Positions 26,933-62,403 of a stretch of 64,000 bases of DNA are shown piece by piece. The stretch comes from an uncultured Bacillales bacterium (GTDB lineage: Bacteria; Bacillota_I; Bacilli_A; RF39; UBA660): positions 2,999 to 66,998 of the forward strand of contig CAJLIR010000006.1 of assembly GCA_905206805.1 (NCBI GenBank). The letters are read 5' to 3'. The number at the start of each line of letters is the position of its first letter. Position 1 is the first letter of the stretch. The translations under genes and the position numbers were made by a program. Below the pieces are notes generated by a model. It saw nothing but the letters and a program-made list of their open reading frames with translations. It was not told where the DNA came from and did not search any database.

Positions 26933-27355
26933 ATGAAAATAACTTTAAAAAAAATAATTTTTATGATATTAATATTTATAATTGTTGGAGTTTTGTTTTT
27001 TATATTAAAAAATAATATTAATAATCAAGAAAAAAATCTTAGAAATCTTCTAAAACAAATGGGTAGTGATTTTTATGAAAATTATTATTATGATGCTTTA
27101 GATGATGATGTTTCTATAAGACAAACTTTCTTAAAAAAGTATGAAACAATTGGAATTAAAATTAACTTAGATAATTTATCTAGATATAGTGCTTTAAATA
27201 ATAGGGATAATTTAGAAAAATTTGTTAATAACAAGACTAATCAGGAGTGTGATAAGATAGATACAAAAGCTATTATATATCCGAAGTATCCGTTTGAAAA
27301 AAAATCGTATGAAATAGATGTAGAGTTATCTTGTGGTTTTGATGAAAGTAAATAA
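26933..27355 (+). CDS. small secreted / membrane-anchored protein with two conserved Cys; diverged paralogue of 46333-46779
   Basis: N-terminal TM; about 50% identity to the 46333 product (SDFYENYYYD...KYETIGIKINLDNLSRY...TKAIIYP...). Confidence 0.55.
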   Translation: MKITLKKIIFMILIFIIVGVLFFILKNNINNQEKNLRNLLKQMGSDFYENYYYDALDDDVSIRQTFLKKYETIGIKINLDNLSRYSALNNRDNLEKFVNNKTNQECDKIDTKAIIYPKYPFEKKSYEIDVELSCGFDESK

Positions 27356-27367
27356 TTACTTTCTTTT

Positions 27368-27397
27368 TTTGAAAATTTTTAAAAAGTGTGGTATAAT
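27368..27397 (+). promoter_or_regulatory. putative promoter of the 3101-aa gene (TTGAAA -35, extended -10 TGgTATAAT)
   Basis: TTGAAA at 27368-27373, 18-nt spacer, TGGTATAAT at 27389-27397; AGGAAGG RBS before the ATG at 27428. Confidence 0.4.
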
Positions 27398-27427: not shown

Positions 27428-30400
27428 ATGTATAAGAATAAAAATTTGATTATATTAATATTTAGTTTAGTTTTGTTTTTTGTATTTTATCCTGATGTTT
27501 TTGCTCAGGAGATATCAGAATTTTCTTGTACAGATGATTATCAAGAATTTATTGCGCCAACTTATGGAAATTATAAAATAGAATTATGGGGAGCTGCTGG
27601 TGGTAGAAACTTAGTTGATAACGCATATACTAATACAACATATGCAAAACTAGGTGGTAAAGGTGCTTATACTAGTGGTGTTATTACTCTTAAGAAAAAC
27701 GAAAAAATTTATGTTTATGTTGGATGCAAAGGGCGAGATGCTAAGAAAGCTACTATTGTCGCTGGCGGATATAATGGTGGAGGTAGAGGAGATCACGATC
27801 ACTCTGATGATGAAGCTTCTGGTGCTGGTGGAGGTGCTACAGATGTTCGTTTAGTAAAAGGTGATAATTGGGATGATTTTACTTCTTTAAAAAGCCGTAT
27901 TATGATTGCTGGTGGAGGCGGAGGAGCTTCTTACGAACTTCGTGGTGGAAATGCTGGTACGCTTTCTGGTGAGGACACTCTTTATAGTAAAGGTGGAACT
28001 CAAACCACTGGATATAAATTTGGAATTGGACAAGATGGAGTTTATGTAAATTCTAATGTCGATGTTGCCGGAGGTGGAGGCGGATATTTTGGGGGATTTG
28101 CCAAATCTTCAGGAGCTTCTAATTCTTATAAAACAGCTGGTGCTGGTGGTAGTTCGTTTGTGTCAGGGTGTACAGGTTGTACTGCTATTTCTGGAAATTC
28201 TACTGAAGATAATATATATTTCTTAAATAGTAATATTCATTATAGTAATTATAAATTTAGTGATATTGTTATGAAATCTGGTAGTGAAGAGATGCCAAAC
28301 TATTTAGACAATAGTGTTATTACTGGTAATAGCTCTGATGGACATGCGAGAATAACTCTTATAAATGGGATTTCTCATTTTACTAAATTAGATATTGAAA
28401 ATGCTACTATTGTTCAAAAATTAGAAGATTCTGTTTTTGAATATGATGTAATTATTCCAAATGATAATTTTTCGACAACTATTAATTATGAAACATCAGT
28501 AAAAAATGTAACTGTATTTGGAGCTGGAAAGGTTACATTAAAAGATGGAAAAGTACATATGGTAAGTATTATAGACAATGATACTGGTGATATTACAATA
28601 TATAATATTACGCCATCTTTAAAGAAATCTACTTTAAAATCGATTTCATTTAGTGAAAAACAATTTGATTTTAATCCTGATCAATATGAATATACAATAG
28701 AAGTACCTTATAATATTTTTGACTTAACGCCTATTATAGAGACTTATGATAATACTACTTATACTATAGAAAAATCTACTTTAAAAATTGGAAATAATTT
28801 AGTAAAAATAAATGTAAGTACTCAAGGTATGGAAAATTCTACTTATAAATTTTATGTAAAAAGACAAGAAAGCAATAATCTTAAAACTATATATGAATCA
28901 ACAGGCTCTTCCGAAGAATACGTTGTACCTTATTCTGGTTATTATGAAATAGAGTTATGGGGAGCTGCTGGTGGCCGAGGTAGAACTAATTATGTATTAG
29001 ATAAATATGGTGGTAAAGGTGGGTATACAAAAGGTACTATCTATCTTGAAAAGGGTACTATTCTTTATTTTTATGTAGGTGGTAAAGGCCTTAATGCTGC
29101 AAGTGTATCTAGATGTGTAGGTGGACTTGGAGGATATAATGGTGGAGCTCAAGGTGGAATTGATGGAAACTGTGATTCTAATCCTGAACCTGGTGCCGGA
29201 GGTGGTGGAGCCACTGATGTTCGTTTGGTAGGAGGAGATTGGAATAATATTGATTCACTAAAAAGCCGTATAATGGTTGCCGGAGGCGGAGGAGGAGGAA
29301 CATATTCTTATGTTGGTTCTTCAGCCGGTGGACTTAATGGGTATGCTGGAGGAGCGGCTAAAACTTTCGCAACTCAAATATCTGGTAATGCATTTGGATA
29401 TGCAACTATGGTTTCTAATTCAGATTATACTGGAGGACCAGGAGGTTCTGGAAGTGGATATTATGGTGGTATAACTAATAAAAGTGATTCTGCATCTGGT
29501 GGAGGAGGTTCCAGTTTTATTTCTGGACATGCTGGAAGTATAGCTATAAATGAAGATGGAATTCCAAAGACAAATGTATATACTGTACTTGATAATTCTA
29601 TTCATTATTCAAATTATAAATTTGAAGATACAGTTATGATAGATGGAAATGGATATGAATGGACAACTAAGAAGGAAACTCAAATTGGAATGCCTACATT
29701 TGATGGAAAATCAAAAATGAATGGTAATGAAAATTCTGGTTATGCCAAAATAACTTTTTTAGGACGAGGAAAAGAAGATACGTTAGATTTCATTGCTTTG
29801 AGTAGTGGTACATTAGATCCAGTATTTGATCCTGATACAAAAGAATATAATGTTACTCTTGATTCATCTGTTTCACAGTTGACTGTTGACGCTACATCTT
29901 CTAATCCGGATATAGCGATATATGGTTTAGGAGAATATGATATTCCGTCAGGAAAAACTGATATAAATATTCAGCTTACTTCTGTAAATGGAAATGTTAA
30001 TTTATATACAATTCATGTAACAAGAGACGCAAATAGTAACAAGTATTTATCTAATGTACTTATCAATGGTATAAAATATGATTTATTTTCACCTAGTAAA
30101 TTCGAATATAATATTGAACTTCCTACAAGTATTAATTATATTGATTTAGAAGTAATTAAAGGTTCTACAAGTCAAGAGGTAACTGGAACAGGTAAGTTTG
30201 AATTTAGTAATAATTCTATTTCTAAAACAATTTTAGTTGTATCTGAAGATAAAAATGAAAGTCAACATTACATATTTAATTTTACAAGAAAAAAGAGTAC
30301 TAAATTAAAAAGTATTGATCTTGGTAATGAACTAATAAAAAATTTTGATTTTGGTTCTGATATATATGAATACAATATAGAAATTCCTAATAATATATTA

Positions 30401-33400
30401 GAGTTGAATATTAATACCATTGCTTATTATAATGGTGCATCTATTGAGATAATAGGCGGCCACTATTTGGAAAAAAGTGGTGTTATAACTGTAACTTCTA
30501 AATTAGAAGGTCTAGAAGATTCTGTTTATAAAATTAATTATACAAAAACTTCTGATATTGATGTTCCCGAAAATTTATATGAGTATACTGGTGATGTTCA
30601 AACATTTACGGCATTATATGGTGGAAAATATAAAATAGAATTATGGGGAGCTGCTGGTGGACGTGGAAGAACTAATTATGTATTAGATAAATATGGTGGT
30701 TCTGGAGGTTACACAAGTGGTGAAATAGTACTTAATCAAAACCAAGTTTTGTATGTTTATGTTGGAGGTAAAGGAAAAGATTCAGCAAGTGTATCTAGAT
30801 GTGTAGGTGGACTTGGAGGATATAATGGTGGAGCCAAAGGTGGTATTGATGGAAACTGTGATTCTAATCCTGAACCTGGAGCTGGTGGCGGAGGAGCTAC
30901 AGACATTCGTTTAGTTGGTGGTATTTGGAATGATACTGATTCATTAAAAAGCCGTATTATGGTTGCTGGAGGTGGTGGAGGAGCCACTTATAATGTTACC
31001 GGTTCATCCGCTGGTGGATTAGAAGGATATATTGGAAATAAAGGAAAATCGGCTGCAACTCAAATATCTGGTAATGCATTTGGATATGGCACTATTGTTT
31101 CTGATTCGGATTATACTGTTGGCCCAGGAGGAGCTGGAAGTGGATATTATGCTGGTACAACTAGTAGAAGTGATGGTTCATCTGGTGGAGGTGGATCAAG
31201 CTTTATTTCTGGACATGCCGGAAGTATAGCCATAAATGAAGATGGTAATCCTAAAACCACACTTTTTACAACTTTAAGTGATTCATATCATTATTCTAAT
31301 TTTGTTTTTACTAATACTGTTATGATAGATGGAAAAGGGTATAATTGGACTACTAAAAAAGAAGGTGTAACTTCTATGCCAGATCCTTATGGGGGATATT
31401 ATAAAGATGGTACTGGAAATTCTAAAGATGGCTATGCTAGAATAACTTTATTATCTACTTTAAGTAGTAATAATTTCTTAGATTCTCTTACAATTAACGA
31501 TGGTGATATTTCGATTGCATTTGAGCCTTGGATTACAGAATATGATTTAAATCTTGAAGAAGATGATAAATATATAAAAATTTCTGCTAAAGCGAAAGAT
31601 GAAGATGCTGTTATTAGCGGTTTAGGTACTGTCACTGTGCCACCTGGCAATAGTAAACAAACAATCTCTGTTACAGCAAGTGATGGAAGTGTTAGAAATT
31701 ATGTATTAAATATAAATCGTAAGGGTTCGAGTGACCCATATCCTTTAGACATACAAATAAATAAAATGAATCCTTATTTATGTCAAAAAGATTCTCATTA
31801 TTGTAATTATACTTTTAATAAAGATACAACTAATTATGAAATTACTTTACCTTTTATGCTTAATGAAGTTGAGGTAAAACCTATTTTAAAATCAGAATAT
31901 CAAAGTGTTATTTATAGAAAAGTAGAAGCTGATAATACAACTGAACTAGAAAATGGTACTTTTAGTTTAACAAATGATATAAATACTTATCAAGTAGAAG
32001 TTACTAGTGAGGATGGAACTCAAAATATTGTTTATACATATGTATTTAAAAGAGATATGACGGGTAATAATAATTTAACTAGTTTAAAAATTGTTAATCC
32101 AGATATTGAAATTGATTTTGATCCATATAAATATGAGTATTATGGAACAATTACTTCAGCTTATACAAATTATGATATTGAAGCAATTCCTGAAAGTAGT
32201 GATGCAAAAGTTTCTATTACAGGAAATACTAATTTGGTTTTAGGAATTAATGATGCTATGGTAATTGTTACTGCTTCTAATGGTGATACTAAAACTTATT
32301 TACTTCATATTTATAAAGAGCAAGATAGTAATGTGTTTTTGAAAGAATTAGAAGTTGTTGGAAATGGAAGTTCTTTAGAGTTATCACCACAATTTAATAA
32401 ATTGTTAAATGATTATGTTATAAGTGCTCCTTCAAATGTGAAATCTGTTACTATAAATGCAACTCCCGAAAGTGGCAGTGCATCTGTTACTGGATTAGGT
32501 AATAAAGTTTTAAAATCTGGTATAAATAATTTTAGTGTTCAAGTAACTAGTGAAAGTGGAGATGTTAATGTTTATAATTTGACAATTAATAAAGATAAGA
32601 ATTTTAATCCACTACTTTCTAATATTGAAATAGATGGATATACTTTTGAAGAAGAATTTAGTCCTACAAATTATGAATATTATTTAAAAATACCAAAGGA
32701 TGTTACTTCGCTTGATTTAAATGTTACTCCACAGGAATCTACTACAAATTATAGAATTAGTGGGAATCGTAATTTAGTAAAAGTAAATAATACTATTACA
32801 ATTCATAGTGTTGCTGAGAATCAAACCTCAAAAGATTACTATATATATGTATCAAAACCTCTTTCATCAAATAATTATTTGAAAGATATTAAGTTAAGTA
32901 CAGGCACCTTAAATGAAGAATTTAATAAAGAAACACTTGAATATACTATGGATATTTCAAGTGATGTTGAGAGTATAGATGTTACCGGAATTTTGGATGA
33001 TTCAAGTTCAATTATAAAGGGTAATGGTACATATTATTTATCCACAGGTGTAAATGTAATTAAACTTGTTGTTCAAAGTGAAACAGAAGAGGAACGTATA
33101 TATACTATAACAATAAATAGGGATAAAAATGATGATGCTGGTTTAAAAAAGGTAAATAATAGCGCAGGTAGTAGTGTTATACTAAATGATACAGAAGAAT
33201 ACCAATATTTGATTAATGTTCAATATGAGGTAAATCAAATAGAGATAAATGGTATTCCAAATGTATCAACATCAACAGTAAATGGTAATGGTACGTATTC
33301 ATTAAAGGTTGGAAATAATGATATTGTTTTAAGCGTTCAAAGTGAGAAAGGAACAGTAAAGACATATATTGTTAGGGTCGTAAGAGATTTATCCTTAAAT

Positions 33401-36400
33401 GATGATTTGAAATATTTATTTGTTAAAGAAGGCGCTCTTTCTCCTAGATTTCAAGATACAACTATTTTATATGATGTTAAAATTCCTTCTAATGTTGATA
33501 AATTAACTATTGATGCTATTACGGAAGATGAAAATGCTACGTATGAAATTATTGGTAATCAAGATTTTGTTGAGGAAACTGAAAAGGAAGTAATAGTTAG
33601 AGTTACTGCTCAACGTGGAAATACTAAAGATTATAAATTGCGAGTTGTTAAACAAAAAGTAATAACTGAAGAATTTTATTTAGATTCTTTATCTATAGAT
33701 TCTGGTATCTTAAATCCTACTTTTGATCCTAAAACTCAACTATATTATGCGTCTGTTGATTATAATGTTAATGAGATTACTTTAACTGGTGGCACTAATG
33801 ATCCAAACGTTAGAGTATATGGAAATGGTACATATTCTTTAAATGTTGGGAAAAATCCACTTGCTATTTCTATAATAAATAGTGAGGGTCTTCAAAAAGA
33901 TTATCAAGTTATCGTGACAAGAAAGGAATCTGATGATGCTACATTATCTTCACTTGTAGTAAAGGGTAATAAATTAAACCCTAAGTTTAATAAGAATATT
34001 GATAATTATACTTTAACTACAAGCAAATCTTTTCTAGAGTTTACTACAATTAAAACAACAGAAAATGATGCCACATATGAAGTAATTGGTAATAAAAATT
34101 TTACAACTGGTATAAATACTGTAACTATAAGAGTTACTGCTCCTGATAAAACAAAAACTCATGATTATGTACTTTCTGTAAATAAAAGTGCAGATACAAA
34201 CAATAATTTAGCATCTTTGAGTGTTCTTGGTAATACTTTAATACCTAATTTTCATAAAGGTGTAACAACATATACCATCAATGTTTCAAATGAAATAAAC
34301 AATGTTGTTATTGAAGCTACACCAGAAGAGAAAACATCTACGGTAACAGGAACAGGGTCACAACAAATTAATGTTGGTACTAATAAAATTGATGTTGTTG
34401 TAACAAGTGAAGCAGGAACTCAAAAAAAATATACAATTATTGTTACAAAAGATGAATCAGATAACAACTTTTTGGCAAATCTTTATACAAGTGAAGGAAT
34501 TTTAACTCCAAATTTTGATAAAGAAATATTAGAATATAATATAAATGTTCCTAATGAAGTTGATGAGATAGAAATAGATGGTAAATTAGAAGATTTATCT
34601 GCATCTACAAATGACTTTAAATTATATTCTTTAAATGAAGGCGATAATTCAATTTATATTACTGTAACAAGTCAGGCTGGAAGTGTACGTATATATAAAA
34701 TAAATGTCAATAGAGAAGAAAAAGTAAGTTCTTATTTAAAGAATTTAGAAATAGAAAATTATGATTTAGATCCCGAGTTTGATAAAGAAAATTTTGAATA
34801 TTTTATTAATGTTAATAATGAAACAACAAAATTAGATATTTCTTTAGAAACAGAAGATGAAAATGCTAATGTTGAAGTATCTGGAAATGAAAATTTTTCT
34901 GTAGGAATGAATATAGTTACAATTACAGTAACAACAACGGATTCGACAACTTCAACTTATGAAATTTATGTTAATAGGAATTTATCTACTAACAATTATT
35001 TAAGTAGTATTGAATTATCTAGTGGTACATTGAACCCAGAATTTAATCCAAATACAATGAATTATGTGGTAGATGTTGAAAATAATATTTCAAGCATAGA
35101 TATTAATGCAGTAGTGCAAGATTCACAATCAGTTGTAACAGTTGGTAATGGAACTCATACTTTAATTACAGGAGAAAATGAAATTGTTATTAAAGTTAAA
35201 TCGGCAATAGGAGTATATAGAGTATATACACTAAAAGTAAATAGAAAAAAATCTGATAATAATTATTTATCAAGTTTAATTGTTACTTCTAATAATAAAA
35301 ATATACCAATAAATTTTGAAAAAACTAATAATAATTATTCAATAAATGTTGATAGTTCAGTTGATTATATCAATATAAAGGCGTTTTCTGAGGAAAAAAG
35401 TTCTACTGTAAGTAATATAGGTACTAAAAAAATAAATTTAGGAATCAATAACTTTGAAATATTAGTTACTAGTGAGTCTGGTCTTGTAAATGTATATAAG
35501 TTAACTGTAGAAAGAAAAGCTAGTAGTAATAATAATGTTATTTTAATAAAACCAAGTGTTGGATTATTAAATGTTTCATTTGATCCAAAAATAAAAGAAT
35601 ATACATTAAATGTAGATAAAGATGATAATTTACTTTCCTTTGATGTTAACTTAGAAGATAGTAAAGCAATTGTTACTGGTTACGAAGAAAAAATTATTAC
35701 TGATGGAACAAGTGTAAGAACAATAACAGTAACAGCAGAAGATGGCAGTACAAATATATATACTTTTAATGTAATAAAAGAAAATCAAAGTGAAGCTAGA
35801 TTATCTAGTTTAAAAATAAAAGGTTATGAAATAAATTTTGATAAAGATAAATTTATTTATAATATAGAAGTAGCTGGTAAAAAAAGTAAATTACTAGAAA
35901 GTGAAATAGAAGCAATACCATTAGATAATGAAGCAAATGTAAATTTGATGGGTGATATAGAATTATTACGAGATATAAATAATAAATATATTATTGAAGT
36001 TATTGCTAAAGATGGTTATACGACACAAGAATATATATTAAATATAACTAGAGGTCCTATATTAGAAAATATTACTGTAAATAAAAATTTGTTTAAAATA
36101 GTAGAAGGTGAAACAGATACTATTTTAGTAACTACTGATCCTTTAGATTTTAAAACTGATATAAAATATGAAGTAGAAGATGATAGTATTGTAAGTGTTG
36201 ATGATGCTGGATTAATAACAGGTTTAAGTGTAGGGAAAACTACAATTAAAGTAATAGCAGTAGAAGATGAAAATATTACAAAAACATTAAATATAGAAGT
36301 AATACCAAAAGAGATAAAGAGTTCATATAGTATTAATAGAGATGAATATAAATATATAATTGGTATGGATGCTGGAATAACTGTTGATGATTTTTTAACA

Positions 36401-36733
36401 AGTATTGAAAATGATAAAGAGTATACAAAAATTTATAATGGAGAAGAATTTGCTGATAATTCTGAAATAATTAAAACAGGACAAATTATAAAACTAGAAA
36501 TAAATGATAAAGTATATGATGAATTGATAATAATTGTTAGAGGAGATATTAACGGTGATGGAAAAATAAACATATCTGATAGTGTTATATTGCAGGATTA
36601 TGTTTTGCTAAAAGAAAAAATAACTGATTATAGAGAATACTCAATGGAATTAACAAAGGATGGGAAAATAAATATATCTGATACTGTTAGACTTAATGAA
36701 TATATTTTAAAGAAAATTAAAACTTTAAACTGA
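27428..36733 (+). CDS. giant secreted surface protein (3101 aa): signal peptide, 3x glycine-rich (ALK/LTK-type Gly_rich-like) domains, about 25 cadherin-like beta-sandwich domains, a Big_2-like Ig domain, C-terminal dockerin
   Basis: Signal peptide. Three roughly 290-aa modules begin Y(G/S)xYKIELWGAAGG and carry multiple poly-Gly stretches (GAGGGATDVRLV, SRIMVAGGGGG, GGSSFISG). Dozens of roughly 90-aa repeats follow the L.SL.v..G.L.P.F......Y...V......V...A.......v.g.G......G.N.I.I.V.....t..Y.i.V.R pattern. C-terminal GDINGDGKINISDSVILQDYVL...KDGKINISDTVRLNEYIL is a dockerin duplicated Ca-binding segment. Confidence 0.9.
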   Translation: MYKNKNLIILIFSLVLFFVFYPDVFAQEISEFSCTDDYQEFIAPTYGNYKIELWGAAGGRNLVDNAYTNTTYAKLGGKGAYTSGVITLKKNEKIYVYVGCKGRDAKKATIVAGGYNGGGRGDHDHSDDEASGAGGGATDVRLVKGDNWDDFTSLKSRIMIAGGGGGASYELRGGNAGTLSGEDTLYSKGGTQTTGYKFGIGQDGVYVNSNVDVAGGGGGYFGGFAKSSGASNSYKTAGAGGSSFVSGCTGCTAISGNSTEDNIYFLNSNIHYSNYKFSDIVMKSGSEEMPNYLDNSVITGNSSDGHARITLINGISHFTKLDIENATIVQKLEDSVFEYDVIIPNDNFSTTINYETSVKNVTVFGAGKVTLKDGKVHMVSIIDNDTGDITIYNITPSLKKSTLKSISFSEKQFDFNPDQYEYTIEVPYNIFDLTPIIETYDNTTYTIEKSTLKIGNNLVKINVSTQGMENSTYKFYVKRQESNNLKTIYESTGSSEEYVVPYSGYYEIELWGAAGGRGRTNYVLDKYGGKGGYTKGTIYLEKGTILYFYVGGKGLNAASVSRCVGGLGGYNGGAQGGIDGNCDSNPEPGAGGGGATDVRLVGGDWNNIDSLKSRIMVAGGGGGGTYSYVGSSAGGLNGYAGGAAKTFATQISGNAFGYATMVSNSDYTGGPGGSGSGYYGGITNKSDSASGGGGSSFISGHAGSIAINEDGIPKTNVYTVLDNSIHYSNYKFEDTVMIDGNGYEWTTKKETQIGMPTFDGKSKMNGNENSGYAKITFLGRGKEDTLDFIALSSGTLDPVFDPDTKEYNVTLDSSVSQLTVDATSSNPDIAIYGLGEYDIPSGKTDINIQLTSVNGNVNLYTIHVTRDANSNKYLSNVLINGIKYDLFSPSKFEYNIELPTSINYIDLEVIKGSTSQEVTGTGKFEFSNNSISKTILVVSEDKNESQHYIFNFTRKKSTKLKSIDLGNELIKNFDFGSDIYEYNIEIPNNILELNINTIAYYNGASIEIIGGHYLEKSGVITVTSKLEGLEDSVYKINYTKTSDIDVPENLYEYTGDVQTFTALYGGKYKIELWGAAGGRGRTNYVLDKYGGSGGYTSGEIVLNQNQVLYVYVGGKGKDSASVSRCVGGLGGYNGGAKGGIDGNCDSNPEPGAGGGGATDIRLVGGIWNDTDSLKSRIMVAGGGGGATYNVTGSSAGGLEGYIGNKGKSAATQISGNAFGYGTIVSDSDYTVGPGGAGSGYYAGTTSRSDGSSGGGGSSFISGHAGSIAINEDGNPKTTLFTTLSDSYHYSNFVFTNTVMIDGKGYNWTTKKEGVTSMPDPYGGYYKDGTGNSKDGYARITLLSTLSSNNFLDSLTINDGDISIAFEPWITEYDLNLEEDDKYIKISAKAKDEDAVISGLGTVTVPPGNSKQTISVTASDGSVRNYVLNINRKGSSDPYPLDIQINKMNPYLCQKDSHYCNYTFNKDTTNYEITLPFMLNEVEVKPILKSEYQSVIYRKVEADNTTELENGTFSLTNDINTYQVEVTSEDGTQNIVYTYVFKRDMTGNNNLTSLKIVNPDIEIDFDPYKYEYYGTITSAYTNYDIEAIPESSDAKVSITGNTNLVLGINDAMVIVTASNGDTKTYLLHIYKEQDSNVFLKELEVVGNGSSLELSPQFNKLLNDYVISAPSNVKSVTINATPESGSASVTGLGNKVLKSGINNFSVQVTSESGDVNVYNLTINKDKNFNPLLSNIEIDGYTFEEEFSPTNYEYYLKIPKDVTSLDLNVTPQESTTNYRISGNRNLVKVNNTITIHSVAENQTSKDYYIYVSKPLSSNNYLKDIKLSTGTLNEEFNKETLEYTMDISSDVESIDVTGILDDSSSIIKGNGTYYLSTGVNVIKLVVQSETEEERIYTITINRDKNDDAGLKKVNNSAGSSVILNDTEEYQYLINVQYEVNQIEINGIPNVSTSTVNGNGTYSLKVGNNDIVLSVQSEKGTVKTYIVRVVRDLSLNDDLKYLFVKEGALSPRFQDTTILYDVKIPSNVDKLTIDAITEDENATYEIIGNQDFVEETEKEVIVRVTAQRGNTKDYKLRVVKQKVITEEFYLDSLSIDSGILNPTFDPKTQLYYASVDYNVNEITLTGGTNDPNVRVYGNGTYSLNVGKNPLAISIINSEGLQKDYQVIVTRKESDDATLSSLVVKGNKLNPKFNKNIDNYTLTTSKSFLEFTTIKTTENDATYEVIGNKNFTTGINTVTIRVTAPDKTKTHDYVLSVNKSADTNNNLASLSVLGNTLIPNFHKGVTTYTINVSNEINNVVIEATPEEKTSTVTGTGSQQINVGTNKIDVVVTSEAGTQKKYTIIVTKDESDNNFLANLYTSEGILTPNFDKEILEYNINVPNEVDEIEIDGKLEDLSASTNDFKLYSLNEGDNSIYITVTSQAGSVRIYKINVNREEKVSSYLKNLEIENYDLDPEFDKENFEYFINVNNETTKLDISLETEDENANVEVSGNENFSVGMNIVTITVTTTDSTTSTYEIYVNRNLSTNNYLSSIELSSGTLNPEFNPNTMNYVVDVENNISSIDINAVVQDSQSVVTVGNGTHTLITGENEIVIKVKSAIGVYRVYTLKVNRKKSDNNYLSSLIVTSNNKNIPINFEKTNNNYSINVDSSVDYINIKAFSEEKSSTVSNIGTKKINLGINNFEILVTSESGLVNVYKLTVERKASSNNNVILIKPSVGLLNVSFDPKIKEYTLNVDKDDNLLSFDVNLEDSKAIVTGYEEKIITDGTSVRTITVTAEDGSTNIYTFNVIKENQSEARLSSLKIKGYEINFDKDKFIYNIEVAGKKSKLLESEIEAIPLDNEANVNLMGDIELLRDINNKYIIEVIAKDGYTTQEYILNITRGPILENITVNKNLFKIVEGETDTILVTTDPLDFKTDIKYEVEDDSIVSVDDAGLITGLSVGKTTIKVIAVEDENITKTLNIEVIPKEIKSSYSINRDEYKYIIGMDAGITVDDFLTSIENDKEYTKIYNGEEFADNSEIIKTGQIIKLEINDKVYDELIIIVRGDINGDGKINISDSVILQDYVLLKEKITDYREYSMELTKDGKINISDTVRLNEYILKKIKTLN

Positions 36734-36800: not shown

Positions 36801-36829
36801 TTTACAAATAATATACATTTTGTTATAAT
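36801..36829 (+). promoter_or_regulatory. putative promoter of the 1851-aa gene operon (TTTACA, 17 nt, TATAAT with TGT extension)
   Basis: TTTACA at 36801-36806, 17-nt spacer, TATAAT at 36824-36829 preceded by TGT; GGGAGAG RBS before 36871. Confidence 0.4.
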
Positions 36830-36870: not shown

Positions 36871-39800
36871 TTGAAAATGAAATTAGTAAAAAAAAATAAT
36901 TTTTTTCTGTTATTTATTATAATGTTATTTTCTTTTGGATTTAATGTTATATCTGTAAATGCAGAAGGTGAACATCAATTTTCATTAAAGGTTTATGATT
37001 GGAATGCTTTTGATAATGATTGGGAAGGTTCTGGTACGGGAGAAGAAATTTCTAATAATGGTACTATAGAACCTGGTAAAGTATATAAATTATCTATTTA
37101 TTATATTCCAGGAACAATTACAGAAGTAGGTATGCAAATGGGGATTAAGTATAATAATCTTTTAATTGAACCGATGTATGCAGATGGTGAATTGTATACA
37201 GAAACTGATATGTCAACAACATACCAAGGTGGTATATGGCCTGCATCAGGTACAACACCATCCGCAAAAAAGAAAACAAATTGGCAAGTATTGTCAAATG
37301 ATGCAAGTGATGAAAGTATGTTTACATTTATGGCTACGGATACAACAACTTCAAATGCTCTTGAAACAGAAGGAGAAATTGCAAGTGTGTATTTTAAAGT
37401 AAAAGATACAGTGACATCAGGAACAAATATAATTTTTGAATATGATGATGAATATACAGCACTTAATAACGATAGACCTAAAGTAACATCAGGAATAAAT
37501 TTAACAGTTCAAACAGCTTTAAGTTCTAATTCGGCACTTCATACATTAAGTGTCACAAATAGCGAAACAACTTATAATTTAACCCCAACTTTTACAGCAG
37601 ATGATAATACAATTAAAGAATATAGTACAGTTGTACCTTCATCAGTAACAAGTGTTGATTTAAGTGCAACAGCAACAGATTCTAATGCCAGCGTGTTAAG
37701 TGGCGGATTGGGTATAAAAGAATTAAATATTGGAAATAATGATTTTAATATAGTTGTAACCGCTGGGGATGGTTCAATTACTACTTATAAGGTGTCAGTT
37801 TATAGATTAAATGATGATGCTACATTAAAATCATTAGATTTAACAAATAATGTTAATATTGGAGAATTTAATAGTGCAACTACTGAATATGAGGCAAGCG
37901 TACCATACGCAACTAAAAATACAGTTGTAAGTGCAACAACAACAGATCAAAATGCAAGTATTAAATCTGGAACTGGAAGTTTTGAATTTACTAATTGTGG
38001 TACTACTCCTAATACTAAGGAAATAATAGTAAATGCTGAAAACTGTAAGGAAGAATATGCAAGTGTTCCAAATAATGCTTGTACTACAAAAACATATACA
38101 GTAACAGTAAATAGAGAAAATCCTTCTAATAATAATTATTTAAGTAATTTAAAAGTAAATGGACAAACAGTAACTGATTTTAATAAAGAAAAATTAGAAT
38201 ATACATTGGATGATGTAAAAGGTGATGTTTCAAGTATAGAAGTTTCAGCTACAGCCGAAGATACAAAAGCAAGTGTAGTAGGAACTGAAAATAAATCACT
38301 AAGTATTGGTGATAATAGTATAGAAGTAGTTGTAACAGCAGAAGATGGATCAACTAAAATTTATACAATAAAAGTTAAGAAGTTATCAAATGATATAGCA
38401 CTTAAATCATTAACTGTAACAAGTAACCCTATGGGAACATTAACTCCAAGTTTTGCAAGTACAACTTATGCTTATACATATAATTATGATGCAACAGTAA
38501 CAAGTTTAAATGTTACAGCAACAACAAATAATACAAATGCAAAAGTAGGAATTATTGATAGTGATTCAAGTGATATTATGACAAGTACAATCGGAAGTGC
38601 AGCAAAAACATTTAATTCATCTACAAAAAATGTAAAAGTAACGGTAACAGCTGAAGATGGTACAACAAAAGATTATACAATTGTTTTATCAAGAGATAAA
38701 TCAACAGATGCAACATTAGATAGTTTAACAGTAAGTGAAGGAACATTAACTCCAACATTTAATAAAAATACATTAAATTATACAGTAAATGTTGATAATG
38801 ATGTTACCAGCATTGATGTAAATGCAACATCAACAGATTCAAATGCTACAGTAACTGGTACAGGAACTAAACAATTAAATACAGGAAATAATTTAATTAA
38901 TATTGTAGTTAAAAGTGAATCTGGAACCGAAAACACTTATACAATAAATGTAATAAGAGCAAAGAGTTCTAATAATTACTTAAGTGATTTAAAAGTAAAT
39001 GGGCAAACAGTAACTGATTTTAATAAAGAAAAATTAGAATATACATTGGATGATGTAAAAGGTGATGTTTCAAGTATAGAAGTTTCAGCTACAGCCGAAG
39101 ATACAAAAGCAAGTGTAGTAGGAACTGAAAATAAATCACTAAGTATTGGTGATAATAGTATAGAAGTAGTTGTAACAGCAGAAGATGGATCAACTAAAAT
39201 TTATACAATAAAAGTTAAGAAGTTATCAAATGATATAGCACTTAAATCATTAACTGTAACAAGTAACCCTATGGGAACATTAACTCCAAGTTTTGCAAGT
39301 ACAACTTATGCTTATACATATAATTATGATGCAACAGTAACAAGTTTAAATGTTACAGCAACAACAAATAATACAAATGCAAAAGTAGGAATTATTGATA
39401 GTGATTCAAGTGATATTATGACAAGTACAATCGGAAGTGCAGCAAAAACATTTAATTCATCTACAAAAAATGTAAAAGTAACGGTAACAGCTGAAGATGG
39501 TACAACAAAAGACTATACAATCGTTTTATCAAGAGCTTTATCAAATAATAGTTATTTAAAAGATATAAGTATTGATGGAACTAATATTGATGGATTTAAT
39601 AAAGAAAATTTTGAATATAATATAAAAGTTTCAAGAGAAACAGATAGTATTAATATATCTGCAATTTTAGATGATGAAAAGGCAACTTTAACTACAGATT
39701 TATCTAATAAATTTAGTTTAAATCTAGGAACTAATAAAATAAATATTGTAGTAACGGCAGAAAATGGTGATACAAGCACTTATGTATTAAATATTGAAAG

Positions 39801-42426
39801 AGAAAAGAATAATGATGCAACATTAGATAGTCTAACAGTTAGTAAAGGAACATTAACTCCAGCATTTAACAAAAACACATTAAATTATACAGTAAATGTA
39901 GAAAATGATGTTACAAGTATAGAGGTTTCAGCTACAGCAACAGATTCAAATGCTACAGTAACTGGTACAGGAACTAAACAATTAAATACAGGAGATAATA
40001 CAGTTACAATAAAAGTAACAAGTGAATCTGGATCAGAAAATACTTACACAATAAATGTAATAAGAGCAAAGAGTTCTAATAATTACTTAAGCGATTTAAA
40101 AGTAAATGGGCAAACAGTAATTGATTTTAATAAAGAAAAATTAGAATATACATTGGATGATGTAAAAGGTGATGTTTCAAGTATAGAAGTTTCAGCTACA
40201 GCCGAAGATACAAAAGCAAGTGTAGTAGGAACTGAAAATAAATCACTAAGTATTGGTGATAATAGTATAGAAGTAGTTGTAACAGCAGAAGATGGATCAA
40301 CTAAAATTTATACAATAAAAGTTAAGAAGTTATCAAATGATATAGCACTTAAATCATTAACTGTAACAAGTAACCCTATGGGAACATTAACTCCAAGTTT
40401 TGCAAGTACAACTTATGCTTATACATATAATTATGATGCAACAGTAACAAGTTTAAATGTTACAGCAACAACAAATAATACAAATGCAAAAGTAGGAATT
40501 ATTGATAGTGATTCAAGTGATATTATGACAAGTACAATCGGAAGTGCAGCAAAAACATTTAATTCATCTACAAAAAATGTAAAAGTAACGGTAACAGCTG
40601 AAGATGGTACAACAAAAGACTATACAATCGTTTTATCAAGAGCTTTATCAAATAATAGTTATTTAAAAGATATAAGTATTGATGGAACTAATATTGATGG
40701 ATTTAATAAAGAAAATTTTGAATATAATATAAAAGTTTCAAGAGAAACAGATAGTATTAATATATCTGCAATTTTAGATGATGAAAAGGCAACTTTAACT
40801 ACAGATTTATCTAATAAATTTAGTTTAAATCTAGGAACTAATAAAATAAATATTGTAGTAACGGCAGAAAATGGTGATACAAGCACTTATGTATTAAATA
40901 TTGAAAGAGAAAAGAATAATGATGCAACATTAGATAGTCTAACAGTTAGTAAAGGAACATTAACTCCAGCATTTAACAAAAACACATTAAATTATACAGT
41001 AAATGTAGAAAATGATGTTACAAGTATAGAGGTTTCAGCTACAGCAACAGATTCAAATGCTACAGTAACTGGTACAGGAACTAAACAATTAAATACAGGA
41101 GATAATACAGTTACAATAAAAGTAACAAGTGAATCTGGATCAGAAAATACTTACACAATAAATGTAATAAGAGCAAAGAGTTCTAATAATAATTTAACAG
41201 ATATTAAAGTAGATGGTAATAGTATTGAAAACTTTAGTTCAAATACTTTAAAATATAATTTACCAAAGGTAAGCTATAATAGAACAAGTATAAATGTAGA
41301 AGCTATATTATCAGATTCAAAAGCTAGCGTAACCGGGGTTGGTAATGTTTCATTAAATACTGGTGATAACAAAATAGAAATAATTGTAACTGCCGAAGAT
41401 GGAACCGCTAAAACTTATGAATTAAATATTGAAAGAAAAAAAAATAATAATGCTAAATTACAAAGTTTAAGTATTGGCAATTATACATTAACTCCAGCAT
41501 TTAATAAAGATACTTTAGAATATACTGTAACAGTAGGTGAAGATGTAAATATTTTAAATCAAGATGATGTAATTGCAATCCCAGAAGATAATAATGCAAC
41601 AGTTGTAAAACAAGGTAATTTAGAGTTATCTACAACATCTGATAATTATTATAGAGTAACAGTAACAGCTGAAAATGGTGTTGATAAAAATGTTTATGCT
41701 ATTAAAGTAATTCGTCCAAAATCAAGTGATGCTACTTTAAAATCATTAGAAATAATTGGTGGAAAATTGACTCCAACATTTAATAAAGATACTTTAGAAT
41801 ATAATGTTACAATGGGTAAAGATGTTACTAAATTTAATAAAGATAATATAAAAGTATCAATAAATAATGGTAATGCTAAAATTAGTTATAACAATGAAAT
41901 AATAATTAATAGTGATACATTTACTAAGTATATAATTACAGTAACAGCTGAAAATGGTTCTAAAAAGGAATATATCTTAAATGTAAAAGTTGATACAGAA
42001 TTGGATAAAATCACATCTAGCAGTCATACAATTAATGATGAATATATTAAAACAGTAAGATTATATGAAACAGGTAGAGAATTAAAGGATGAGTTGGATA
42101 ATGATAATGCTTATCTTGAAATTTGGACATCTGATGAATCAAGAAAAGTTGAAGATGATGAAAAATTATCAACTGGAATGATTGTAAAATTAGTTATTAA
42201 TGGTGTTTTAAAAGATAGAAAAATCATTGTTATTAGGGGAGATACATCTGGTGATGGTGAAATAGATTTGTTAGATGCTGTTAAAATATTAAATAATGCA
42301 TTGCAAAAAGCAATGTTAGATGGAGCTTATAAAGAAGCAGCATTTGTAAATAATGATGATGAAATTGACTTATTGGATGCAGTTATGATTTTAAATCATT
42401 GTTTACAAAAACAACCTTTATATTAG
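36871..42426 (+). CDS. giant secreted surface protein (1851 aa): signal peptide, N-terminal cohesin-like domain, about 16 cadherin-like beta-sandwich domains, C-terminal dockerin-like module
   Basis: N-terminal region (aa about 35-215) shows the cohesin-like pattern (KVYKLSIYYIPG..EVGMQMGIKYNNLLIEP ... GEIASVYFKVKDTVTSGTNIIFEYDD). Repeated cadherin-like domains. C-terminal GDTSGDGEIDLLDAVKILN...NNDDEIDLLDAVMILNHCL is a dockerin-like duplicated segment. Confidence 0.85.
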   Translation: MKMKLVKKNNFFLLFIIMLFSFGFNVISVNAEGEHQFSLKVYDWNAFDNDWEGSGTGEEISNNGTIEPGKVYKLSIYYIPGTITEVGMQMGIKYNNLLIEPMYADGELYTETDMSTTYQGGIWPASGTTPSAKKKTNWQVLSNDASDESMFTFMATDTTTSNALETEGEIASVYFKVKDTVTSGTNIIFEYDDEYTALNNDRPKVTSGINLTVQTALSSNSALHTLSVTNSETTYNLTPTFTADDNTIKEYSTVVPSSVTSVDLSATATDSNASVLSGGLGIKELNIGNNDFNIVVTAGDGSITTYKVSVYRLNDDATLKSLDLTNNVNIGEFNSATTEYEASVPYATKNTVVSATTTDQNASIKSGTGSFEFTNCGTTPNTKEIIVNAENCKEEYASVPNNACTTKTYTVTVNRENPSNNNYLSNLKVNGQTVTDFNKEKLEYTLDDVKGDVSSIEVSATAEDTKASVVGTENKSLSIGDNSIEVVVTAEDGSTKIYTIKVKKLSNDIALKSLTVTSNPMGTLTPSFASTTYAYTYNYDATVTSLNVTATTNNTNAKVGIIDSDSSDIMTSTIGSAAKTFNSSTKNVKVTVTAEDGTTKDYTIVLSRDKSTDATLDSLTVSEGTLTPTFNKNTLNYTVNVDNDVTSIDVNATSTDSNATVTGTGTKQLNTGNNLINIVVKSESGTENTYTINVIRAKSSNNYLSDLKVNGQTVTDFNKEKLEYTLDDVKGDVSSIEVSATAEDTKASVVGTENKSLSIGDNSIEVVVTAEDGSTKIYTIKVKKLSNDIALKSLTVTSNPMGTLTPSFASTTYAYTYNYDATVTSLNVTATTNNTNAKVGIIDSDSSDIMTSTIGSAAKTFNSSTKNVKVTVTAEDGTTKDYTIVLSRALSNNSYLKDISIDGTNIDGFNKENFEYNIKVSRETDSINISAILDDEKATLTTDLSNKFSLNLGTNKINIVVTAENGDTSTYVLNIEREKNNDATLDSLTVSKGTLTPAFNKNTLNYTVNVENDVTSIEVSATATDSNATVTGTGTKQLNTGDNTVTIKVTSESGSENTYTINVIRAKSSNNYLSDLKVNGQTVIDFNKEKLEYTLDDVKGDVSSIEVSATAEDTKASVVGTENKSLSIGDNSIEVVVTAEDGSTKIYTIKVKKLSNDIALKSLTVTSNPMGTLTPSFASTTYAYTYNYDATVTSLNVTATTNNTNAKVGIIDSDSSDIMTSTIGSAAKTFNSSTKNVKVTVTAEDGTTKDYTIVLSRALSNNSYLKDISIDGTNIDGFNKENFEYNIKVSRETDSINISAILDDEKATLTTDLSNKFSLNLGTNKINIVVTAENGDTSTYVLNIEREKNNDATLDSLTVSKGTLTPAFNKNTLNYTVNVENDVTSIEVSATATDSNATVTGTGTKQLNTGDNTVTIKVTSESGSENTYTINVIRAKSSNNNLTDIKVDGNSIENFSSNTLKYNLPKVSYNRTSINVEAILSDSKASVTGVGNVSLNTGDNKIEIIVTAEDGTAKTYELNIERKKNNNAKLQSLSIGNYTLTPAFNKDTLEYTVTVGEDVNILNQDDVIAIPEDNNATVVKQGNLELSTTSDNYYRVTVTAENGVDKNVYAIKVIRPKSSDATLKSLEIIGGKLTPTFNKDTLEYNVTMGKDVTKFNKDNIKVSINNGNAKISYNNEIIINSDTFTKYIITVTAENGSKKEYILNVKVDTELDKITSSSHTINDEYIKTVRLYETGRELKDELDNDNAYLEIWTSDESRKVEDDEKLSTGMIVKLVINGVLKDRKIIVIRGDTSGDGEIDLLDAVKILNNALQKAMLDGAYKEAAFVNNDDEIDLLDAVMILNHCLQKQPLY
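38135..38975. repeat. first, partial copy of the intragenic tandem repeat (A+B units, about 840 bp)
   Basis: The 560-bp A unit (aataattatttaagtaatttaaaagtaaatggacaaacag...ttatcaagag) recurs almost identically at 38975 and 40082. Confidence 0.8.
38975..41188. repeat. two near-identical 1107-bp tandem repeat units inside the 1851-aa gene (each encodes about 4 cadherin-like domains)
   Basis: Identical 228-bp stretches, shown by identical reverse-strand ORFs at 39552-39779 and 40659-40886 (offset 1107 bp); only a few SNPs between units. Confidence 0.85.
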
Positions 42427-42435
42427 GAGGCAATT

Positions 42436-44550
42436 ATGAAAAAATTTAAAAATTTAAACTTGTTTATAGTATCTGGCTTTATATTTCTATTTTCTATCTT
42501 TTTTATAACTCCAGTATATGCTTTAGGAAGTGCTACAGTAGGTTTTAGTGGCAATTCTACTGTTAGTGTAGGTAGTAATATAACAGTACAATTATATGTA
42601 TCAAATGTTAATGATGCAAATGGTGGTGTTGCAAGTTTTGAAGGAAATCTTTCTTTTGATTCTGATTATTTGGAATATGTATCAGGATCTGGTGCAACAA
42701 CTCCTTATTTGTTTCAAATAAATACAGCTGCAAATTATAAAATTGCAGCTCTTGATACATCTTTAAGTAATGGCATTAAAAGTAGTAGTTCGACTAACGT
42801 TTTTACCTTTGTATTTAAAGCAAAAAAAGAAGGCTCAACAACTGTTAGTATTACAAATTTAAAATTGACTAATAGCAGTGAGAGAATGACTGGTAATGTT
42901 AGCCCAAAAACAATTACGATAAATACTCCTGCACCAGTTACAAAATCAAGTGATGCAACACTTAAAAGTTTATCAGCAACAGGCTATACATTAAGTCCTG
43001 AATTTAATAAAGATATTACATCTTATAAGATTAAAGTTCCAGCAACTGCTACAACAGTTAGTTTACAAGGAAGTGCTAATCATAGTAAGGCAACAGTATC
43101 AGGACTTGGTAATATAAATTTAACTGGTGATACAACTGTTGCAACAATAAAAGTAACAGCCGAAGATGGAACGGTAAAAAATTATACAGTAACAATTGAA
43201 AAAGAAAAAACTACTCCTGTTACAAAGAGTAATGATGCAACACTTAAAAGTTTGGATGTTAGTGGATTTACTTTAAATCCAACTTTTAAAAGTAATGTAA
43301 ATACTTATTCTATTAGGGTTAATAATAATATAACTGGTTTAAAAGTTACTGCTATTGCTAATAGTGATAAAGCTAGTGTTTCTATATCTGGAAATAGTGA
43401 TTGGGAAGAAGGAAACAATATAATTACAATAAAAGTAACAGCAGAAGATGGAACAGTTAATAATTATATTGTTAATGTTAATAGAGCTTCACTAAATACA
43501 ACAAAAGCTATAAATAAATCGAGTGACAATTATTTAAAGAGTTTAATCATTCAATCATCACACGAAATGAAACCTATTTTTGATAAGAATTTAACTAATT
43601 ATAATATTACAGTACCTTATGAGGTTAGCAAACTTGATTTAACTGCTACTAGTAATGACTCTAAAGCAAAAGTTGAAATAATAGGTAATAGTAGTTTTAG
43701 TGTTGAAAAAGTAAATCTTGTTGAAGTTAAAGTAACTGCTGAGGATGGAAGTATTCGTATTTATTCTTTAAACGTTACTCGTAGTACAACTTCTAGTAAA
43801 ACTGATTTAAAAGATTTAGTAATAGATAATGTTAATTTAAGTCCAAAATTTGATTCAAATATTTTAGATTATACTGCTAATGTTGATGCTAAAACTGATA
43901 AATTAAATATTAGATATACAACTAGTAATAGTGATAGTAAAGTCGAAATAATTGGTAATGATAATTTAAAAGAAGGAAATAATACTGTTTTAATAAAAGT
44001 AACTGATAAGGAAGGCTTTACTAAGTATTATTCGATAAATGTTGTAAAAGAAAAATCAGGTAGTACTATTTTAGGTCTTAAACCACTTCATTTTGTACTT
44101 CTATTCTTTATAATACTTCTTTTAATTGCGATAATTATTATTTTATTAATAAAAAGAAAAAAAGATGAGAACAAAAAATTGGAAGAAAAGAAGTTAATGC
44201 AAACGCAACCAATAATTGAAGTAAAACCAGAATTTAATTTTAATTCAAAGAATTCTTCTGATGATGATGTTGTACACGGAAATATGAGTCAAAATAGTGG
44301 TACTATAGGGACAAATCCAGAAAAGAAACAAATTTTTGATGCTAGTTATGAAAATAAAATTCCTTATGACCCTTATGATGAAACAGTTACTAAACAAGAA
44401 TTAATTGATGCAATTCACGAAGCATCAGAAAAAAAGGATGTGTCTAAACTTCAAATGTTGTTGAGGCAAGAAGAGTTAAATAAGATGAAAAAAGAATTAA
44501 AGGAAAAAGAGGATTTAGAACAAAAAGAGGAAGATGAAAAATGGTGGTAA
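42436..44550 (+). CDS. membrane-anchored cohesin protein (704 aa): signal peptide, cohesin domain, 4 cadherin-like domains, TM helix, charged cytoplasmic tail of about 130 aa
   Basis: N-terminal SATVGFSGNSTVSVGSNITVQLYVSNVNDANGGVASFEGNLSFDSDYLEYVSGSG...VFTFVFKAKKEGSTTVSITNLKLTN matches the cohesin fold pattern. TM LHFVLLFFIILLLIAIIIILLI followed by a KRKK stop-transfer. RBS TAGGAGG 10 nt after the upstream gene's stop. Confidence 0.8.
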   Translation: MKKFKNLNLFIVSGFIFLFSIFFITPVYALGSATVGFSGNSTVSVGSNITVQLYVSNVNDANGGVASFEGNLSFDSDYLEYVSGSGATTPYLFQINTAANYKIAALDTSLSNGIKSSSSTNVFTFVFKAKKEGSTTVSITNLKLTNSSERMTGNVSPKTITINTPAPVTKSSDATLKSLSATGYTLSPEFNKDITSYKIKVPATATTVSLQGSANHSKATVSGLGNINLTGDTTVATIKVTAEDGTVKNYTVTIEKEKTTPVTKSNDATLKSLDVSGFTLNPTFKSNVNTYSIRVNNNITGLKVTAIANSDKASVSISGNSDWEEGNNIITIKVTAEDGTVNNYIVNVNRASLNTTKAINKSSDNYLKSLIIQSSHEMKPIFDKNLTNYNITVPYEVSKLDLTATSNDSKAKVEIIGNSSFSVEKVNLVEVKVTAEDGSIRIYSLNVTRSTTSSKTDLKDLVIDNVNLSPKFDSNILDYTANVDAKTDKLNIRYTTSNSDSKVEIIGNDNLKEGNNTVLIKVTDKEGFTKYYSINVVKEKSGSTILGLKPLHFVLLFFIILLLIAIIIILLIKRKKDENKKLEEKKLMQTQPIIEVKPEFNFNSKNSSDDDVVHGNMSQNSGTIGTNPEKKQIFDASYENKIPYDPYDETVTKQELIDAIHEASEKKDVSKLQMLLRQEELNKMKKELKEKEDLEQKEEDEKWW

Positions 44551-46332: not shown

Positions 46333-46779
46333 ATGGGTAGTGTTTTGAAAAAATTAGATAAAAAGGTTTATATTTTAATATTTGCTATTATTTTAATATT
46401 GGTTATTGCCTTTTTTATAATAAAAAATATTAATAGAAAAGAAATAAGTGAAGAAGAAAGATTATCAAATTTATTAATAAAAATGAGTAGTGAATTTTAT
46501 GAAAATTTTTATTATGATCAAATAGGCAGTACAGAAGAAGATAGAATTAATTTTGTAAAAAAATACGAAACTATTGGTATAAAGTTTAATCTTGATAATT
46601 TATCAAGATATAATTTTGATGAAAATAATGAATTAATTAAAGAGTTTATTAATTCAAATACTAATCTAGAATGTAATAGAGTTAATACAAAAGCAATTAT
46701 TTATCCAGTAGAACCATATTCAAAGAAATCATATAATATAAAAATAGAATTAGATTGTAGTCTTGATAATAATAAATAA
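46333..46779 (+). CDS. small secreted / membrane-anchored protein; paralogue of 26933-27355
   Basis: N-terminal TM; conserved core SEFYENFYYD...KYETIGIKFNLDNLSRY...TKAIIYP...C...C. Confidence 0.55.
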   Translation: MGSVLKKLDKKVYILIFAIILILVIAFFIIKNINRKEISEEERLSNLLIKMSSEFYENFYYDQIGSTEEDRINFVKKYETIGIKFNLDNLSRYNFDENNELIKEFINSNTNLECNRVNTKAIIYPVEPYSKKSYNIKIELDCSLDNNK

Positions 46780-59824: not shown

Positions 59825-59845
59825 ATTAAAATTGTGAGGAATTGT

Positions 59846-62338: not shown

Positions 62339-62403
62339 TTTTTCTTGATTTTTTTGTAATTTTTGTTATTATAGTATAAAATTTATATTTAATGGGGGAA
62401 AAT

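Follow-up and report, generated by a model that had tools for sequence, protein, structure and literature searches.

We analyzed a window of 64,000 nucleotides (nt) from an uncultured Bacillales bacterium of the human gut (contig CAJLIR010000006.1, positions 2,999 to 66,998), the window being this whole stretch of DNA. Its forward strand encodes, at 27428..36733, a secreted protein of 3101 amino acids (aa), as read from the list of open reading frames (ORFs) and the translation. Three modules of this protein are true members of the Pfam family PF12810 and of the fold known from the glycine-rich domain (GRD) of the ALK/LTK receptors, in which a TNF-like beta-sandwich is joined to a glycine-rich subdomain. 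We propose, with a probability of roughly 0.6, that the protein is a long stalk, tethered by a dockerin, which displays the three domains (GRD1, GRD2 and GRD3) as ligand-binding, that is, adhesin, heads. An earlier note on the same DNA had described three tandem ALK/LTK-type domains at 27540-31450, at the tip of a fibre-like protein, and had suggested a ligand- or host-binding function. The span was right to within about 20 nt, the modules lying at 27521-31462; the remaining claims are taken up below with the results that bear on them.

Family membership and fold of the glycine-rich modules

The profile of PF12810 (ALK_LTK_GRD, formerly Gly_rich; 243 positions, gathering score 24.5 bits) matched every module on its own with 158-190 bits, namely GRD1 with E 9.8e-56 (189.9 bits), GRD2 with E 4.3e-46 (158.3 bits) and GRD3 with E 5.9e-48 (164.4 bits), covering positions 4 or 7 to 243 in each case, and it matched the whole protein with E 1.2e-142 in three stretches. 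The family membership claimed in the earlier note is thereby established. Its sequence observations also hold: the motif Y.IELWGAAGG occurs exactly three times in the protein (aa 49, 506 and 1068), the quoted glycine strings GAGGGGATDVRLV, SRIMVAGGGGG and GGSSFISG are all found in the modules, whose glycine content is 18-22%, and the motifs GGGGAT, AGGGGG, GGGGYxGG and GxSFIS align with ALK/LTK.

A single-sequence phmmer search with GRD2 against the PDB sequences gave no match, ALK included. In contrast, a profile built from 100 bacterial homologues retrieved SCD-2, ALK and LTK chains from the PDB (E 2e-8 to 1.3e-5) and nothing beyond these at E<0.05, the only other match at E<=1 being a phage Hoc protein (E 0.089). 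As the single sequence fails, the link with ALK needs a profile or a structure comparison. The latter was provided by AlphaFold2 (AF2) models of GRD2 (predicted local distance difference test score, pLDDT, 92.7; predicted template modelling score, pTM, 0.92) and GRD1 (pLDDT 94.1, pTM 0.93). In both models beta-strands are found at the two ends and a long centre with pLDDT >90 is assigned neither alpha nor beta structure by DSSP; in GRD2 this applies to residues about 66-111 and 135-248, and this part superposes on the ALK GRD. A confident centre left blank by DSSP is how a polyglycine-II bundle would appear to that program, and the bacterial modules may contain such a bundle. The one in ALK consists of 14 polyglycine-II helices in hexagonal packing (PMC13243192). 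The modules thus show a TNF-like beta-sandwich, whose strands come from the N- and C-terminal parts, and a glycine-rich subdomain woven into it, they are similar in structure to the TNF-like/glycine-rich unit of the phage proteins Pam3 gp24 and Bxb1 gp33, and the models are confidently folded, not disordered, as the earlier note had expected. No similarity of the modules to any enzyme fold was found.

The three modules, each of about 290-300 aa, are diverged copies, as had been stated: pairwise alignment gave protein identities of 45% for GRD1/GRD2, 47% for GRD1/GRD3 and 69% for GRD2/GRD3, with 74% DNA identity for the last pair. The nearest outside relatives of GRD2 are only 48-50% identical to it over nearly the full length, and GRD2 and GRD3 are therefore mutual closest kin; they are the more recent pair among the copies, and the distance of GRD1 from both is comparable to that between unrelated family members. 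GRD1 is the most divergent copy and lacks an 11-aa segment, IDGxGYxWTTK. The conserved cysteine pairs described earlier hold in part, since GRD2 and GRD3 have one pair in common (SRC..GNC), which is found in 2% of the aligned family sequences, but GRD1 has its four cysteines at other positions; among the three modules only GRD1 retains the near-invariant cysteine of the family (96%, motif GC.AI). A duplication unit of GRD2 and GRD3 that includes flanking cadherin-like domains was considered and is not clear, as identity between the second and the fifth of these domains (Cad2 and Cad5) is 32%, little more than the background of about 20-25%.

Domain order of the 3101-aa protein

Pfam matched four families in the protein, PF12810, PF12733, PF02368 and PF00404, and NCBIfam had no model for it. 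The order of domains, all on the forward strand, is a signal peptide, GRD1, two cadherin-like domains, GRD2, three cadherin-like domains, GRD3, 17 further cadherin-like domains, a Big_2 domain and a dockerin. The signal peptide is of the Sec type (aa 1-26, 27428..27505, ending ...DVFA before QE; from hydrophobicity and sequence reading). GRD1, the TNF-like/glycine-rich unit defined by PF12810, AF2 and alignment, occupies aa ~32-313 (27521..28366) and is followed by two cadherin-like beta-sandwich domains (aa 314-483, 28367..28876). GRD2 extends over aa ~486-780 (28883..29767), and three cadherin-like domains (aa 781-1044, 29768..30559) separate it from GRD3 (aa ~1048-1345, 30569..31462), which is supported by PF12810, alignment and the substitution analysis given below. 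The limits of the three modules were taken from Pfam and the AF2 models, and the cadherin-like domains between them from a hidden Markov model (HMM) built from the protein's own repeats. Pfam and the repeat HMM place the remaining 17 cadherin-like beta-sandwich domains, the stalk, at aa 1346-2877 (31463..36058). A Big_2 Ig-like domain (aa 2880-2945, 36065..36262; PF02368, E 2.8e-8) and a type I dockerin (aa 3039-3094, 36542..36709; PF00404) complete the chain. Altogether the repeat HMM counts 22 cadherin-like units, compared with 15 by Pfam.

The modules are thus interspersed with two and three cadherin-like domains, and the description of them as tandem has to be abandoned. Their placement at the tip is correct insofar as they occupy the N-terminal end, which would be the distal one, but the region spans the N-terminal 43% of the protein.

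The sole hydrophobic segment of the protein is that of the signal peptide (aa 6-27), and no further transmembrane (TM) segment was found. Pfam gives GRD, cadherin-like, Big_2 and dockerin domains only, and the features of the ALK/LTK receptor family are absent: the 3101-aa protein is a relative of ALK/LTK at the level of the domain, not a receptor kinase.

The 9.3-kb ORF is uninterrupted in a genome of ~25% GC, which is also the GC content of the window; it rises to 31-33% over 28-32 kb, where the glycine codons lie. The identical protein is present on metagenome contigs of ENA and NCBI. Of the sigma-70-like sites in the region, the best (27369..27397, forward strand; 11/12 matches with an extended -10) lies 30 nt upstream of the start codon; another that scores equally well, at 36801-36829, is found upstream of the gene that follows, which encodes a protein of 1851 aa. 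In a scan for promoters and terminators the overall number of sites was not above the shuffled expectation, and the site at 27369..27397 is therefore only suggestive.

The cohesin-dockerin gene cluster

The gene is the first of four on the same strand, encoding proteins of 3101, 1851, 704 and 566 aa. The dockerin of the 3101-aa protein scored 29.4 bits against PF00404 in the whole protein and 35.8 bits in a C-terminal fragment (cut-off 22.9), and it has two calcium-loop repeats, DINGDGKINISD and LTKDGKINISD (D.NGDGKINISD-like). The 1851-aa neighbour (36871..42426, forward strand) is secreted, and Pfam recognizes in it 15 or more cadherin-like domains and, at the C-terminus, a dockerin (Dockerin_1, 23.5 bits, just over the cut-off); like the 3101-aa protein, it has a single hydrophobic segment, the N-terminal signal peptide. 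Its N-terminus (36871-37530) matches cohesin weakly (PF00963, E 4.2e-4, 21 bits, below the cut-off of 24.1) and showed no similarity to the cohesin of the 704-aa protein by BLASTP. Were this match real, the 1851-aa protein would serve as an adaptor scaffoldin, and end-to-end docking of the two giants could give a still longer fibre.

The 704-aa protein (42436..44550, forward strand), identified from PF00963 and TM prediction, is a membrane-anchored, scaffoldin-like protein composed of a signal peptide, a cohesin (aa 40-159; PF00963, with a whole-protein score of 37.5 bits and 41.7 bits for an N-terminal fragment, against the same cut-off), four cadherin-like domains, a TM helix (aa ~548-573) and a charged cytoplasmic tail. 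The 566-aa protein (44541..46241, forward strand) is a second membrane-anchored protein with three cadherin-like domains and a C-terminal TM helix (Pfam, TM prediction), and between its N-terminal domain and the cohesin of the 704-aa protein the identity is 38% (BLASTP E 9e-23). The dockerins of the two giants differ at the helix recognition positions (..KINISDSV.. in the 3101-aa protein, ..EIDLLDAV.. in the 1851-aa protein), which usually set specificity. Given two differing dockerins and two diverged membrane-anchored cohesins, two specific dockerin-cohesin pairs are therefore suggested, as far as sequences can tell.

The 3101-aa protein is thus probably tethered through its dockerin to a membrane-anchored cohesin encoded nearby. 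As the dockerin is its only anchoring device and the cohesin partners are membrane-anchored, the C-terminus should be proximal to the cell and the GRDs distal, with GRD1 outermost; the distal position given in the earlier note thus agrees with the arrangement of the cluster. Pfam recognized no glycoside hydrolase, lyase, esterase or carbohydrate-binding module (CBM) in the four cluster proteins.

Two small single-pass membrane proteins, of 140 aa (26933-27355) and 148 aa (46333-46779), flank the four-gene cluster. They share 53% identity (E 9e-41); for the first of them Pfam gave no match. They may be accessory or assembly factors.

Ortholog comparison and allelic variation

The closest genome match is an uncultured Bacilli metagenome-assembled genome (MAG) from Hadza gut samples (L003). 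Its ortholog, of 3033 aa, is 87% identical over aa 1-2897 (BLASTP), retains the three GRDs at the same places and has its own dockerin; it is preceded at the same position by an ORF equivalent to the small membrane proteins (146 aa, 719-1159) and followed by a dockerin-bearing neighbour and then by a cadherin-like gene. We compared the 3101-aa protein with this ortholog by the method of Nei and Gojobori. The ratio of nonsynonymous to synonymous substitution rates (dN/dS) was 0.26 for GRD1, 0.29 for GRD2 and 0.09 for GRD3, all at 94-95% protein identity, and 0.30 for the proximal stalk (Cad17-22; 69% identity), compared with 0.82 for the region from Big_2 to the dockerin (35% identity). Purifying selection was thus indicated in every region; the heads are constrained, and divergence is seen at the anchoring end.

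Among full-length metagenome variants of the protein (n=10; 98.5-99.8% identity) 74 sites are variable, 16 of them in GRD1, where they cluster at aa 60-74 (27605-27649) and aa 256-267 (28193-28228) and include a one-residue indel. The first of these loops has the same variant in the L003 ortholog; it corresponds to a loop that is variable family-wide, and nowhere else in the first two-thirds of the GRD1 model is the confidence so low. The variation in the two patches is no more than a hint of an allelic surface loop. The enrichment of polymorphism in GRD1 (16/74, binomial p about 9e-4) was rejected as a test, as nearly all of these sites lie on two or three linked haplotypes.

Other members of the family

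With the three modules as query, exhaustive profile searching of 1.84 billion representatives, with clusters defined at 50% identity, gave 8,077 matching clusters at E<=1e-3, 4,380 at E<=1e-10 and 1,266 at E<=1e-30. The top matches were mostly giant proteins with several GRDs, of up to 7,663 aa and with about 10 matched stretches; these giants and the protein's own cluster came from this search, a first homologue search having missed both. Three to four GRDs with 14-22 cadherin-like domains are also found in at least four more proteins, P0154, P0162, P0211 and the L003 ortholog; Pfam gives a C-terminal dockerin in all of these except P0162, and a Big_2 domain, among the three P-numbered proteins, in P0211 only. 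Surface giants with several GRDs are therefore common, the 3101-aa protein being one example and not a one-off.

Many other relatives contain one GRD only and measure 330-520 aa, several of them being fused to pilin N-termini (PF07963). Among relatives such as P0010, P0045, P0097, P0023, P0038, P0070 and P0087 the signal sequences are of the kind ..GVSYAYY.., ..FSYAIF.. or ..IGYASIN.., or those of type IV pilins; the first three endings are presumably like those of SipW-type or other special signal peptides. Of 55 mid-size proteins with several GRDs, 10 have a type IV pilin N-terminal methylation motif and others carry Flg_new or Ig-like surface repeats. These fusions suggest that the domain may often be built into filaments. 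The surroundings of two single-GRD relatives were uninformative: the neighbours of P0029, downstream of an integrase, are DUF5305 and unknown small proteins, and those of P0097 are sigma-factor genes.

Many phage homologues exist: three PHROG families, none with an assigned function, match with E 1e-24 to 1e-37, and BFVD contains 73 viral models at E<=1e-3, including some named "virion structural protein" or "putative short tail fibre". Some phage homologues (A0A8S5SE10, A0A8S5URB1) bear the automatic UniProt name "receptor protein-tyrosine kinase", an artefact of annotation carried over from the ALK domain.

Function of the glycine-rich domains

In the mechanism that we propose, the Sec signal peptide would export the 3101-aa protein, the C-terminal type I dockerin would plug into a membrane-anchored cohesin encoded two or three genes downstream, and the stalk of 22 cadherin-like domains and one Big_2 domain would hold the three GRDs off the cell, GRD1 outermost. 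With about 4 nm for each Ig-like domain, the stalk would be on the order of 90 nm long. The GRDs would then most probably act as binding heads for targets in the gut, such as glycans or proteins of host or mucus, particles, or other microbes. Binding is the role that we would infer as best for them by analogy, because of the resemblance to ALK/LTK, Pam3 and Bxb1 and because bacterial relatives have the domain grafted onto pilins and Ig-repeat stalks. In ALK/LTK the glycine-rich domain is the cytokine-binding region (PMC13490271). In Pam3 gp24 the TNF-like/glycine-rich unit forms the distal tip of the fibre, with a proposed role in host-receptor recognition, a conserved glycine stem and variable distal loops (PMC9608196), and Bxb1 gp33 is placed outermost on the "wings" of the tail (PMC12646305).

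Several results weigh against this proposal. The dN/dS scan against the L003 ortholog gave no signal of diversifying or positive selection in the GRDs, and the sole polymorphism hot spots, the two patches of GRD1, are not independent events, being carried by two or three haplotypes. The polar residues that are invariant in 100 diverse bacterial homologues (T, D and R of GGGATD.R, S and R of SLKSR, H and S of HYS) are not conserved in ALK or SCD-2. A literature search found no characterized bacterial GRD protein, and no binding assay or ligand for bacterial members; and the pairing of cohesin and dockerin is read from adjacency only.

The GRDs could instead be structural or oligomerization nodes, either zipping three chains into a rigid fibre or acting as knobs of a protective coat, with no specific ligand. 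Trimerization is frequent in TNF-like folds (TNF, C1q), and Pam3 gp24 is a trimer. However, many relatives are single-GRD proteins of 330-520 aa, cadherin-like and Ig-like stalks are normally single chains and, to our knowledge, the ALK/LTK module is not a constitutive trimer, so that we consider this explanation unlikely. The presence of a cohesin-dockerin system in the cluster of a gut-dwelling organism would also be in keeping with a cellulosome-like targeting, in which the GRDs serve as carbohydrate-binding modules on dietary or host polysaccharide. This would be a special case of binding, and we regard it as rather improbable in view of the lack of Pfam-recognized carbohydrate-active enzymes and CBMs in the four proteins and of any carbohydrate-binding PF12810 member in the literature search. 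The same invariant residues, absent from ALK and SCD-2, might point to an unrecognized catalytic or cofactor-binding activity. They could equally cap and hydrogen-bond the glycine bundle, though, and with no enzyme-fold similarity at hand such an activity seems very unlikely.

As the fold is common in phage virion proteins and the region is 18-22% glycine, the gene might also be taken for a prophage tail-fibre gene or the region for a disordered, low-complexity glycine-rich linker. Both possibilities are effectively refuted by the chromosomal housekeeping context, the confidently folded models and the purifying selection on the modules. The window carries chromosomal genes (RNase J, FtsY, Ffh, FeoB, a PBP5-type carboxypeptidase and BclA-like collagen proteins), and no phage structural genes were found in the cluster or nearby; with its Sec signal peptide, its dockerin and the cohesins encoded next to it, the protein is a chromosomal cell-surface protein and not a phage fibre. 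One could finally speculate that the GRDs bind a host protein, serving at the surface as a decoy or sensor of ALKAL-type cytokines or of another host factor, and that the metazoan ALK/LTK domain descended from the adhesin scaffold of bacteria and phages. In that case receptor binding by phages, adhesion by bacteria and cytokine reception in animals would all rely on a single evolvable fold, the glycine bundle. Nothing in our evidence supports a host-cytokine ligand specifically, and we hold this idea to be extremely improbable.

Comparison with known systems

The receptors ALK and LTK (PDB 7lrz, 7n00, 7nx1 and 7lir), which are activated by ALKAL cytokines, have an EGF-like domain, a TM helix and a kinase, all of which the 3101-aa protein lacks; it has instead three copies of the GRD in one chain, each flanked by cadherin-like domains. 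Identity to the receptors is only about 19-29%, the bacterial family has the invariant D, R, S and H residues and a longer C-terminal segment of the sandwich, and no ALKAL-like gene was seen. Fibre tips with a glycine-rich bundle are known from phages, namely Pam3 gp24 of a cyanophage (7ypx) and Bxb1 gp33, the "tail wing brush" of a mycobacteriophage (9d93), with gp38 of Salmonella phage S16 as a more distant glycine-rich tip. In contrast to these, the 3101-aa protein is found in no virion or phage context, its neighbours being chromosomal.

As in other cohesin-dockerin surface assemblies, whether cellulosomal scaffoldins or non-cellulosomal proteins, a type I dockerin resides on the displayed protein and the cohesin anchors are encoded in the same cluster. 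In contrast to these, the cluster has neither enzymes nor CBMs, the cargo consists of two giant proteins of cadherin-like repeats, and the anchors are C-terminal TM helices in place of SLH domains or sortase motifs. The proteins that NCBI names "glycine rich domain-containing" have the same domain, at 37-50% identity over nearly the full length, and are secreted or surface proteins of MAGs of gut Firmicutes and Bacteroidota, some of them type IV pilin fusions; most have a single domain and 330-520 aa, compared with the three GRDs found here. Taken together, the 3101-aa protein likely resembles most a fibre-tip adhesin displayed by a non-cellulosomal cohesin-dockerin system.

Bacterial proteins with glycine-rich domains are already recognized by Pfam and NCBI and similar giants are frequent, so this is no new kind of system. 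PF12810 has nevertheless been known almost only through ALK/LTK, where its odd architecture of a TNF-like fold with polyglycine-II helices came as a structural surprise in 2021. Bacteria and phages have the domain in abundance, usually on appendages such as Ig-repeat stalks, pilin fusions and phage fibres. The locus offers a clean, conserved example, with three diverged heads, a proximal dockerin anchor and candidate cohesins next door, and would be a practical system in which to ask what a bacterial glycine-rich domain binds. It could also show in what way a bacterium of the gut Bacilli builds long surface fibres by means of cohesin and dockerin with no cellulosomal enzymes in the cluster.

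Genomic neighbourhood

Downstream of the cluster, the window contains an N-terminal fragment (140 aa, 46846-47268) of a Peptidase_S11 protein of the PBP5 type, with a full-length copy 1.8 kb downstream (49028-50182). An HTH_36 gene and an unknown 258-aa gene, one of which lies at 47344-48069, separate the two copies, and the arrangement resembles a partial duplication or what is left of an insertion. Two proteins with collagen repeats (50289-51416 and 54416-55525) carry BclA_C heads, which are TNF/C1q-like and of the exosporium-filament type, and constitute a second kind of surface protein with a TNF-like fold in the same neighbourhood.

Further upstream, a gene for a HerA-like DUF87 ATPase overlaps by one base with the gene that comes next, of the FGase family (N-formylglutamate amidohydrolase-like), the two covering 4923-7438 between ftsY (3338-4315) and ffh (7974-9281). 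This unusual pair might be a defence-type module. Towards the other end of the window, a gene of the Fic/DOC family (62392-63225) adjoins an ABC/FtsX transporter gene (59834-62338).

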